Shown here piece after piece: positions 7,034-9,180 of a stretch of DNA of 11,964 nt (the first letter of the stretch is position 1; every line of letters starts with the position of its first letter). Position numbers and translations under genes: made by a program. The stretch is taken from assembly GCF_003334255.1 (NCBI RefSeq), contig NZ_QOWU01000082.1. One strand, written 5' to 3'. The stretch is from Escherichia coli (lineage in GTDB: Bacteria; Pseudomonadota; Gammaproteobacteria; Enterobacterales; Enterobacteriaceae). The notes beneath the pieces were generated by a model that was not told where the DNA came from, did not search any database, and worked only from the letters and a program-made list of their open reading frames with translations.

Positions 7034-8104
7034 ATGAAGCTGGTTGAACACTACATCATGCGTGGTACGCGCCGTCTGGTGCTGATTATCGTCGGTTTTC
7101 TGATCTTTATTTTCGCCAGCTACTCCGCACAGCGTTATCTGACCGAAGCGGCAAATGGGACATTAGCTCTTGATGTTGTGCTGGATATCGTTTTCTACAA
7201 AGTACTGATTGCACTGGAGATGTTGTTACCTGTTGGTCTGTATGTGTCAGTTGGCGTGACGCTAGGGCAGATGTATACCGACTCGGAAATTACCGCTATC
7301 TCTGCGGCGGGGGGCAGTCCGGGACGCTTGTACAAAGCCGTTCTTTATCTGGCGATACCGCTAAGTATTTTTGTCACCCTTCTGTCGATGTATGGTCGTC
7401 CGTGGGCTTATGCGCAGATTTATCAACTGGAGCAGCAGTCGCAGTCGGAGCTGGATGTTCGCCAGTTGCGGGCAAAGAAATTTAACACTAACGATAACGG
7501 ACGAATGATCCTTTCGCAGACGGTTGATCAGGATAATAATCGCCTGACTGACGCGCTGATTTATACTTCTACTGCCAATCGAACCCGCATTTTCCGCGCC
7601 CGTTCGGTTGATGTGGTTGACCCATCACCCGAGAAACCGACCGTTATGTTGCACAACGGCACTGCCTATCTTATCGATCATCAGGGGCGTGATGACAACG
7701 AACAGATCTACCGTAATCTGCAATTACATCTGAATCCGCTGGATCAAAGCCCTAACGTCAAACGCAAAGCGAAATCGGTCACGGAGCTGGCGCGCTCCGT
7801 CTTTCCAGCCGATCATGCCGAACTGCAATGGCGGCAAAGCCGTGGCCTGACCGCATTGTTGATGGCGCTGCTGGCCATTTCATTAAGTCGGGTAAAACCG
7901 CGGCAAGGGCGATTTTCAACGTTATTGCCACTGACGTTGCTGTTTATTGCCATTTTTTATGGCGGTGACGTCTGCCGTACGCTGGTGGCTAACGGCGCGA
8001 TTCCCCTCATTCCTGGTTTGTGGTTAGTACCCGGACTCATGCTAATGGGCCTGCTGATGCTGGTCGCACGCGACTTCTCTTTGCTGCAGAAATTTTCCCG
8101 ATGA
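7034..8104 (+). CDS. LptF/LptG-family (YjgP/YjgQ) permease, paralog 1
   Basis: 356-aa ORF. N-terminus LVEHYIMRG followed by a TM helix, family-typical SEITAISAAGGSP motif after the third hydrophobic segment, a hydrophilic middle domain and C-terminal TM helices. This matches LptF/LptG architecture as I recall it. Confidence 0.85.
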   Translation: MKLVEHYIMRGTRRLVLIIVGFLIFIFASYSAQRYLTEAANGTLALDVVLDIVFYKVLIALEMLLPVGLYVSVGVTLGQMYTDSEITAISAAGGSPGRLYKAVLYLAIPLSIFVTLLSMYGRPWAYAQIYQLEQQSQSELDVRQLRAKKFNTNDNGRMILSQTVDQDNNRLTDALIYTSTANRTRIFRARSVDVVDPSPEKPTVMLHNGTAYLIDHQGRDDNEQIYRNLQLHLNPLDQSPNVKRKAKSVTELARSVFPADHAELQWRQSRGLTALLMALLAISLSRVKPRQGRFSTLLPLTLLFIAIFYGGDVCRTLVANGAIPLIPGLWLVPGLMLMGLLMLVARDFSLLQKFSR

Positions 8105-9180
8105 ATGTTTTCAGCCGCTATTTAATCCGTCATCTCTTTCTCGGTTTTGCCGCCGCCGCAGGGCTATTGCTGCCGCTTTTTACCACCTTCAACCTGATTA
8201 ACGAACTGGATGATGTCAGCCCGGGCGGTTATCGCTGGACTCAGGCGGTGCTGGTGGTGCTAATGACCTTACCGCGCACACTGGTCGAACTTTCGCCATT
8301 TATCGCCTTATTGGGAGGGATTGTCGGCCTGGGGCAGTTATCGAAAAACAGTGAGCTTACCGCCATTCGCAGCATGGGGTTTTCTATCTTCCGTATTGCA
8401 CTGGTGGCGCTGGTTGCAGGGATATTGTGGACTGTTTCGTTAGGCGCGATAGATGAGTGGGTAGCGTCGCCATTACAGCAACAGGCGTTGCAAATCAAAT
8501 CGACCGCCACCGCGTTGGGGGAGGACGATGACATTACCGGCAATATGCTGTGGGCCAGGCGTGGTAATGAATTTGTGACGGTGAAATCGCTGAACGAGCA
8601 GGGCCAGCCGGTGGGCGTGGAGATTTTTCATTATCGCGACGATCTCTCGCTCGAATCCTACATTTATGCACGCAGTGCCACCATTGAAGACGACAAAACG
8701 TGGATCCTGCATGGTGTGAATCATAAAAAATGGCTGAATGGCAAAGAAACGCTGGAAACATTAGATAATCTTGCCTGGCAATCGGCCTTCACCAGTATGG
8801 ATCTTGAAGAGTTATCAATGCCGGGCAATACTTTTTCTGTCCGTCAGCTTAATCATTACATCCATTATTTGCAGGAAACCGGGCAACCCAGCAGCGAATA
8901 CCGCCTTGCACTGTGGGAAAAACTGGGGCAACCCATCCTGACCCTGGCGATGATTTTGCTGGCTGTGCCGTTTACCTTTAGCGCCCCGCGCTCGCCAGGG
9001 ATGGGTAGCCGTCTCGCTGTAGGTGTCATCGTTGGCTTACTCACCTGGATCAGCTATCAAATCATGGTCAATCTGGGATTGCTATTTGCGTTGAGCGCAC
9101 CTGTTACCGCGCTCGGTTTACCGATAGCGTTTGTGCTGGTGGCGTTGAGCCTGGTGTATTGGTATGACAGACAACATTAA
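8101..9180 (+). CDS. LptF/LptG-family (YjgP/YjgQ) permease, paralog 2
   Basis: Start placed at the ATG at 8101 (MNVFSRYLIRHLFLGF...), which forms an ATGA overlap with the upstream stop and matches the family N-terminus. The ORF track begins at 8020, but that would overlap the upstream gene by 85 nt. SELTAIRSMGFS motif, periplasmic middle domain, C-terminal TM helices. 359 aa from 8101. Confidence 0.8.
   Translation: MNVFSRYLIRHLFLGFAAAAGLLLPLFTTFNLINELDDVSPGGYRWTQAVLVVLMTLPRTLVELSPFIALLGGIVGLGQLSKNSELTAIRSMGFSIFRIALVALVAGILWTVSLGAIDEWVASPLQQQALQIKSTATALGEDDDITGNMLWARRGNEFVTVKSLNEQGQPVGVEIFHYRDDLSLESYIYARSATIEDDKTWILHGVNHKKWLNGKETLETLDNLAWQSAFTSMDLEELSMPGNTFSVRQLNHYIHYLQETGQPSSEYRLALWEKLGQPILTLAMILLAVPFTFSAPRSPGMGSRLAVGVIVGLLTWISYQIMVNLGLLFALSAPVTALGLPIAFVLVALSLVYWYDRQH

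Follow-up and report, generated by a model that had tools for sequence, protein, structure and literature searches.

What would Escherichia coli export with a second pair of LptF/LptG-type permeases, when it already has the canonical pair that extracts lipopolysaccharide (LPS)? The question is raised by an 11,964 bp stretch of E. coli chromosome (contig NZ_QOWU01000082.1; "the window" throughout), in which two adjacent genes, here called lptF2 and lptG2, converge on the operon spt-acpR-epi-aasR, where spt encodes a serine palmitoyltransferase (SPT). An earlier note, made from the sequence of the window alone, had suggested that the two gene products form a dedicated extraction machine for a lipid other than LPS. 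By comparing the pair and its surroundings across genomes we found that it is linked to genes for sphingolipid synthesis well beyond E. coli. LptF2 and LptG2 are probably the transmembrane (TM) subunits of an LptB2FG-type extractor dedicated to the sphingolipid of the surrounding gene cluster.

Results

Both genes lie on the + strand, lptF2 at positions 7034–8104 (356 amino acids (aa)) and lptG2 at positions 8101–9180 (359 aa), and the ATGA overlap of stop and start codons which had been described previously was read directly at 8101–8104. A longer GTG start is available for lptG2 at 8020; the ATG at 8101 agrees with the RefSeq annotation and with all orthologs. The two proteins matched Pfam family PF03739 (LptF_LptG) over their full length (LptF2: E = 8.1e−54, residues 7–345; LptG2: E = 1.1e−69, residues 6–353), covering positions 1–352 of the 353 in the model. 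With the NCBIfam models, LptF2 scored 318 bits for LptF (TIGR04407) vs 65 bits for LptG, and LptG2 scored 308 bits for LptG (TIGR04408) vs 87 bits for LptF. The motifs SEITA and SELTA were found at residues 84–88 of LptF2 and LptG2 respectively, and the nearest solved relatives by sequence were the LptF and LptG chains of LPS transporters.

Single-chain models were produced with AlphaFold2 from 54 LptF2-type and 58 LptG2-type orthologs, with predicted local distance difference test (pLDDT) values of 83.8 and 85.4 for the two models. Each consists of TM1–TM2, a coupling helix (residues 85–91), TM3, an all-beta periplasmic domain (approximately residues 150–230) and TM4–6, and so displays the layout by which the family is recognised, six TM helices of which TM3 and TM4 are separated by a periplasmic beta-jellyroll. 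In a Foldseek comparison the top PDB matches were all LptF or LptG chains: the LptF2 model superimposed onto LptF chains with TM-scores of up to 0.81, and the LptG2 model onto LptG chains with TM-scores of 0.77–0.85, ahead of LptF chains (~0.6). The beta domain also weakly matched LptC and LptA. Profile scores and Foldseek ranking both identify one F-type and one G-type subunit, encoded in tandem as is characteristic of the family. By Pfam, NCBIfam and predicted fold, the pair is therefore made up of full-length LptF-type and LptG-type permeases, as the earlier note had read from the motifs, the periplasmic domain and the C-terminal TM bundle, and none of these searches assigned either protein to an unrelated permease family.

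RefSeq names all proteins of this kind "LPS export" permeases because they pass the NCBIfam equivalog models. The cut-offs (230 bits for LptF and 240 bits for LptG) are passed by sphingolipid-locus proteins of E. coli, Pseudomonas and Nitrospirota at 275–318 bits, and canonical E. coli LptF and LptG score 385 and 456 bits with the same models. Since spt-linked pairs of Pseudomonas and Nitrospirota pass too, the models do not discriminate between the two kinds of pair. The "LPS export" naming of LptF2 and LptG2 is probably wrong.

The lipid-synthesis operon on which lptF2G2 converges, with a gap of 34 nt between lptG2 and spt, consists of early genes of sphingolipid synthesis. AasR (ECD_02851), AcpR (ECD_02853) and SPT (ECD_02854) of E. 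coli BL21(DE3), when expressed together, make 3-oxo-sphinganine (Geiger laboratory, PMC9386255), and in the same study ECD_02852 (epi) is the presumptive reductase and yghO (ECD_02850) the presumptive N-acyltransferase. LptG2 orthologs with 65–75% identity were found in many Enterobacterales. Beyond this order, the relatives found among 1.84 billion library representatives had identities of 44–50% and then of 33–37%. The closest library representative sits on a 1.8-kb contig, on which gene context is not readable. One metagenomic relative with 45% identity belongs to a locus with genes for SPT, an acyl carrier protein, an epimerase and an AMP-ligase, another with 44% identity comes from Methyloversatilis, a third, also metagenomic, with 37% identity has the same synteny of head-group genes on a contig which ends before any SPT is visible, and a fourth with 36% identity adjoins a DAGK-type kinase.

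A scan of one genome per species yielded 80 loci from distinct species, spanning Escherichia, at least 15 other enterobacterial genera, Pseudomonas, Stutzerimonas, Azotobacter, Nitrococcus, Betaproteobacteria and Nitrospirota. lptF2 adjoins lptG2 in 79 of these 80 loci. Flanks of 10 kb were taken, and linkage was counted in the 57 loci for which 9 kb or more was available on each side: spt was present in 55 of these and at least one sphingolipid-synthesis gene was present in all 57. Among the full 80 loci, 15 were without spt, including eight without any sphingolipid-synthesis gene, all eight of which have truncated upstream flanks. The linkage does not depend on one arrangement, as lptF2G2 was found within 10 kb of the spt operon under at least four gene orders: convergent in E. 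coli, with the spt operon upstream in Serratia, as an inverted module in Rosenbergiella, and as yghO-lptF2-lptG2 on the same strand outside the Enterobacterales. The spt-linked pairs of Pseudomonadaceae, Betaproteobacteria and Nitrospirota share the core spt-acpR-epi-aasR, yghO/bCerS, lptF2 and lptG2 with E. coli, with LptG2 identities to the E. coli protein of 44–59% in gamma- and betaproteobacteria and 31–35% in Nitrospirota and a Chromatiales metagenome-assembled genome (MAG). A neighbour-joining tree placed 50 gamma- and betaproteobacterial spt-linked LptG2 sequences in a clade of 52 with canonical E. coli LptG outside; this clade, which has no bootstrap support, can be taken as modest evidence that they belong together.

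Two loci differed in their state of preservation. In Pseudomonadaceae UBA5811 lptF2 has an internal stop and spt and acpR are absent, and in P. umsongensis spt is present as a 13% fragment only. These look like decaying copies, in which transporter and synthesis genes may be degrading together.

The pair in the window is a second copy and not the organism's sole lptFG. With K-12 as the query, all 5426 complete E. coli genomes proved to have the canonical pepA-linked lptF-lptG, whereas lptF2G2 was present once, on the chromosome, in 4106 of them (76%) and was absent from 24%; NZ_CP033884.1 is one of the genomes which carry both. The universally retained copy at the pepA locus is thus a different one. 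Canonical E. coli LptB2FGC (LptF/YjgP, LptG/YjgQ; PDB 6MHU, 6MI7 and 6S8H) has permease subunits of the same family and fold, encoded in the same F-then-G tandem with overlapping stop and start and with the same coupling-helix glutamate. In contrast to these, lptF2G2 lies at another locus and is dispensable, and the identity between paralogs is low (LptF2 29% to LptF; LptG2 28% to LptG).

The window corresponds to the pitB-yghTSRQ…yghO region of E. coli. Its bases 78–11887 are up to 99.9% identical to E. coli genomes, and by nucleotide comparison at least 80% of the window is carried by 4072 of the 5426 complete genomes. K-12-like strains have an IS5-associated deletion, which leaves a truncated yghQ' followed by IS5 and yghO (NZ_CP029239.1; from window position 5326 onward) and takes the 3' end of yghQ, the gene for a 274-aa protein, the ytfJ-like gene, lptF2, lptG2, spt, acpR, epi and aasR. 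Because K-12 is without the locus, it has been overlooked and has gone unstudied. Where the genes are present they appear constrained: against Escherichia sp. E1V33 and E. whittamii, the ratio of nonsynonymous to synonymous substitution rates (dN/dS) was 0.05–0.07 for lptF2 and 0.044–0.047 for lptG2, which indicates that both are maintained as functional genes. In E. coli O157:H7 FRIK944 the best match spans window positions 78–1530 (pitB) only, and the cluster from yghT to aasR seems to be missing, which would make a further independent loss. A 456-aa E. coli protein annotated as GspC, found on 3 contigs, matches both PF11356 and PF03739 and is 100% identical to 72% of LptG2; apparently it is a gspC-lptG2 fusion made by deletion.

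No LptB-like ATPase was found with E. coli LptB (tblastn) in the window or in a 23.8-kb reference locus, in agreement with the earlier report that no ATP-binding cassette (ABC) ATPase adjoins the pair. Searches with E. coli LptC and LptA (tblastn) were likewise empty for the window and the reference locus, and in the 80 loci they gave no LptC- or LptA-like open reading frame (ORF) at E ≤ 1e−3, although very divergent jellyrolls could escape at this threshold. Enterobacterales clusters contain no ABC protein at all. The ABC matches inside Pseudomonas and betaproteobacterial clusters are half-transporters of 570–680 aa, in which transmembrane and nucleotide-binding domains (TMD and NBD) are fused, and these are plausible flippases. 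The few stand-alone NBDs sit at locus edges and none is LptB-like, and a dedicated ATPase encoded within the clusters was rejected on these grounds.

The coupling helices are the part of the permeases which engages LptB, and here the sequences are conserved. The coupling-helix glutamate (LptF E84, LptG E88) is genetically central to LptB-LptFG function, and ten coupling-helix positions give defects when mutated (LptF 80, 84, 90 and 91; LptG 83, 84, 88, 89, 95 and 96)(PMC5082905). The glutamate is present as E85 in both paralogs and is invariant in 54 of 54 LptF2-type and 58 of 58 LptG2-type aligned sequences, which answers the call in the earlier note for a check of LptB-interaction residues. 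By hand mapping on alignments, 7 of the 10 defect-giving positions are identical in LptF2/LptG2.

We also compared residues which contact LPS, at the lipid A phosphates and inner core, in a Shigella structure (PMC6744409). At the positions of LptG K34/D37/K40/K41, LptG2 has N/N/D/D, and R133 is replaced by L; LptF K317/K322 are replaced by V/I in LptF2. Three contacts are kept: LptF R33 as R34, LptG K62 as R and LptG R136 as K. The lost TM1 cationic cluster (K34/K40/K41 to N/D/D) was first read as the mark of a non-LPS substrate, with a smaller and less anionic pocket, and this reading was rejected. An acidic "ELDDVG" motif in TM1 prevails among 134 diverse family representatives, and the corresponding four residues are A/D/N/D in LptG of P. 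aeruginosa, whose LPS transporter has a solved structure; the TM1 difference from the co-resident LptG is therefore uninformative on substrate.

Upstream of lptF2 the window contains a set of genes which, in our loci, characterises the Enterobacterales. yghS (2709–3422) and yghR (3454–4212), both on the + strand, encode P-loop, nucleoside monophosphate (NMP) kinase-like paralogs by profile search, and yghT (1843–2535, − strand), identified by ORF, annotation and profile search, encodes a third P-loop paralog in divergent orientation. Apart from the P-loop, the three show only faint similarity to thymidylate kinase; RefSeq names yghS and yghT "dTMP kinase" on scores far under the cut-off. yghQ (4258–5607, + strand) encodes a Polysacc_synt (Wzx/MOP-type) membrane protein by profile search and is a candidate flippase gene. 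The next gene (5607–6431, + strand) is kept in the enterobacterial version of the locus and encodes a 274-aa protein in which Pfam and NCBIfam recognise no domain. It is followed, directly 5' of lptF2, by a gene for a YtfJ_HI0045-family periplasmic protein with a signal peptide (6443–7003, + strand; profile search). The pair had been described as lying directly downstream of a flippase; this needs correction, as the 274-aa and YtfJ-family ORFs intervene on the same strand. A PDB sequence search gave no match for the YtfJ-like protein or YghR.

Other lineages have different accessory genes. Most Pseudomonadaceae, Nitrococcus, betaproteobacterial and Nitrospirota loci contain an NTP-transferase, a CDP-alcohol phosphatidyltransferase, a DAGK-type kinase and a Tam41-like gene, and none of these four (NTP-transferase, CDP-OH_P_transf, DAGK_cat, Tam41-like) occurs in any of the 47 enterobacterial loci. 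In place of the enterobacterial module, the non-enterobacterial pairs stand behind yghO and the NTP-transferase gene on the same strand, often with an MsbA-like half-transporter. Conversely no non-enterobacterial locus has yghQ, the 274-aa gene or the ytfJ-like gene, so that the YtfJ-family gene is linked to the cluster in Enterobacterales only. Outside this order yghRST have weak matches only, plus close homologs in one Pseudomonas MAG (~70% identity to E. coli for yghT/S/R), which suggests a transfer of that module.

The remaining features of the window concern the convergent operon and the state of the locus in the source genome. In the reference strain the order is gss, pitB and yghT (− strand), then yghS, yghR, yghQ, the 274-aa hypothetical, the YtfJ-family gene, "lptF" and "lptG" (+ strand), then spt and the genes for the acyl carrier protein, the NAD-dependent epimerase-family protein and the fatty acyl-AMP ligase (− strand), followed by yghO and glcC. 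spt (9215–10387, − strand) matched the betaproteobacterial-type serine palmitoyltransferase model best (599 bits vs a cut-off of 500). acpR (10387–10635, − strand) encodes the specialised acyl carrier protein for SPT (annotation; PMC9386255), and epi/cerR (10667–11581, − strand) encodes an NAD-dependent epimerase/dehydratase-family protein, the presumptive 3-ketosphinganine (ceramide) reductase (assignment from PMC9386255). Between the convergent lptG2 and spt, a consensus scan marked a 16-bp GC-rich hairpin (9178–9212) as a candidate bidirectional terminator; it looks perfect, fills the intergenic gap, overlaps the lptG2 stop and lies 3 nt from the spt stop.

Both ends of the window are IS1 termini. 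The left one (1–77, − strand, reverse complement) lies in the gss-pitB intergenic region and the right one (11888–11964, − strand, reverse complement), identified by sequence comparison, has the same orientation and abuts aasR, the gene for acyl-AcpR synthetase, which it cuts at 11887/11888. In the 23.8-kb reference locus aasR has 1689 nt (562 codons); the 3'-terminal ~103 codons remain in the window (11578–11887, − strand). With two direct IS1 copies around it, the entire 11.8-kb segment could also be deleted or mobilised through them. The same IS1/aasR junction in one piece was found in none of the complete E. coli genomes in our collection, and the best-matching complete genome, that of another E. 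coli strain, has IS1 inside pitB. As IS1 truncates the gene for the enzyme which loads AcpR, the sphingolipid substrate is probably not made in the source genome, and to judge from the sequence the pathway is probably idle there although lptF2 and lptG2 are intact.

Discussion

We propose that LptF2G2 would work with the products of the genes around it in the following way. The substrate would come from aasR, acpR, spt, epi and yghO/bCerS together with the enterobacterial head-group module. Ceramide, once built at the cytoplasmic face, would be modified and moved across the membrane, with YghQ as a possible flippase. The one LptB dimer available in the cell, docked on the conserved coupling helices, would use ATP to drive closure and so expel the lipid into the periplasmic beta-jellyrolls, from which it would pass to the shared LptC/A/D/E bridge and on to the outer membrane. 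For E. coli we infer every one of these steps, as well as the identity of the lipid and the use of LptC/A/D/E.

The class to which the pair belongs has already been published for Caulobacter, and E. coli LptF2G2 is a recognised member of it and not a novel one. CC_1168, CC_1156 and CC_1155 of Caulobacter were named LptC2, LptF2 and LptG2 and proposed to transport phosphosphingolipid (Geiger laboratory, 2024, PMC11324152). In a preprint of April 2026 (Uchendu, Isom and Klein, 10.64898/2026.04.12.717747), Caulobacter lptC2, lptF2 and lptG2 could be deleted only in the absence of spt or of the ceramide kinase gene cpgB, the deletions being lethal only when anionic sphingolipid is made; LptF2 and LptG2 co-purified, and both pulled down the sole LptB. 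According to the same preprint, many alpha- and gammaproteobacterial sphingolipid loci include lptF2 and lptG2, and LptC2 is restricted to Caulobacter; its Figure 2B contains a drawing of the E. coli UTI89 locus, in which the genes match. In the literature searched, LptF2/LptG2 were named only in these two works. The idea of an extractor for another lipid is accordingly already in the literature. As proposed for the window, perhaps with a borrowed LptB, it is the best reading of the linkage, the lack of an ATPase in the locus, the invariant E85 and the Caulobacter analogy.

The C. crescentus pair (CCNA_01214/CCNA_01213; CC_1156/CC_1155) is, like that of E. coli, a second LptF-LptG pair inside a sphingolipid locus. 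Both loci have spt, acpR, epi/cerR, aasR, bCerS and a flippase candidate, and both are without a copy of lptB. They differ in that Caulobacter has LptC2, which the E. coli locus does not, and in their accessory genes: Caulobacter has a ceramide kinase, CpgB, which is DAGK-like (PMC10331486), whereas E. coli has the three P-loop kinase-like paralogs, the YtfJ-family protein and the 274-aa protein, with no DAGK_cat, CDP-OH_P_transf or Tam41-type gene. Because of these different accessory genes, the lipid carried by E. coli LptF2G2 is probably not a Caulobacter-type ceramide phosphoglycerate.

Several points weigh against a sphingolipid extractor driven by LptB in E. coli. The literature searched contains no experiments on E. 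coli LptF2/LptG2 and reports no sphingolipid from the native E. coli locus, and in the source genome of the window aasR is disrupted. The likeness to Caulobacter comes from locus content and from Figure 2B of the preprint. As the SPT of E. coli belongs to the betaproteobacterial type, the history of the enterobacterial system may be a separate one. Use of LptB by E. coli LptF2G2 would follow from coupling-helix conservation alone, and E. coli has many other ABC ATPases. Finally, as the equivalog models are passed, the sequences by themselves are also compatible with LPS as the substrate.

A second LPS exporter, either redundant or for modified LPS, is what the RefSeq names imply. The scores exceed the equivalog cut-offs (318 vs 230 and 308 vs 240 bits), the fold is indistinguishable from that of LPS transporters, and several contacts to the lipid A 1'-phosphate (LptF R33, LptG K62 and R136) are kept, the latter two as R and K. 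However, spt-linked pairs of Pseudomonas and Nitrospirota pass the same models, and the pair accompanies sphingolipid genes in 57 of 57 loci and never LPS genes. The canonical pair is moreover kept in every genome, and K-12-like strains, whose LPS export is normal, have lost lptF2G2 together with spt. We consider a role in LPS export highly improbable. A non-sphingolipid product of yghS-yghR-yghQ-hyp274-ytfJ-like, such as a glycolipid or a polymer-linked lipid, would make the adjacency to spt incidental; in E. coli the pair is on the same strand as these genes and tightly spaced with them, and YghQ belongs to a Wzx-type polysaccharide flippase family. This is very unlikely, since the pair keeps its linkage to spt/aasR/yghO outside the Enterobacterales (Pseudomonadaceae, Betaproteobacteria, Nitrococcus and Nitrospirota), where nearly all loci lack the enterobacterial module, and since it follows yghO (bCerS) on the same strand in 21 of these loci.

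A different partner is also conceivable for a sphingolipid extractor, which could be powered by an ATPase other than LptB or could bypass the LptC/A/D/E bridge. Three of the ten functionally important coupling-helix positions differ, an ABC protein is found in many non-enterobacterial loci, and Caulobacter has its own LptC2, but no LptC-like gene was seen in the 80 loci. The ABC proteins of these loci are fused and not stand-alone, the clusters of Enterobacterales have none, the coupling glutamate is invariant and, in Caulobacter, LptF2/G2 pull down LptB; we regard this arrangement as unlikely. The most probable reading is still an extractor which serves the sphingolipid of its own cluster and uses LptB and the shared bridge.

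Before the Caulobacter preprint of 2026 it was not clear how bacterial sphingolipids arrive at the outer membrane. E. coli offers the best-developed Lpt genetics, structures and inhibitors, and 76% of its strains have a second, dispensable LptFG, making lptF2G2 a convenient system in which to study how one LptB serves two extractors and what sets the choice of substrate. More tentatively, Enterobacterales might produce and export a sphingolipid whose head group is not of the Caulobacter CPG2 type, and which YghT/S/R, the 274-aa protein and the YtfJ-like protein would build, YghQ would flip and LptF2G2 would extract. If this is true, approximately three quarters of E. coli strains would carry a so far undetected outer-membrane lipid, the export of which would compete with that of LPS for the single LptB.

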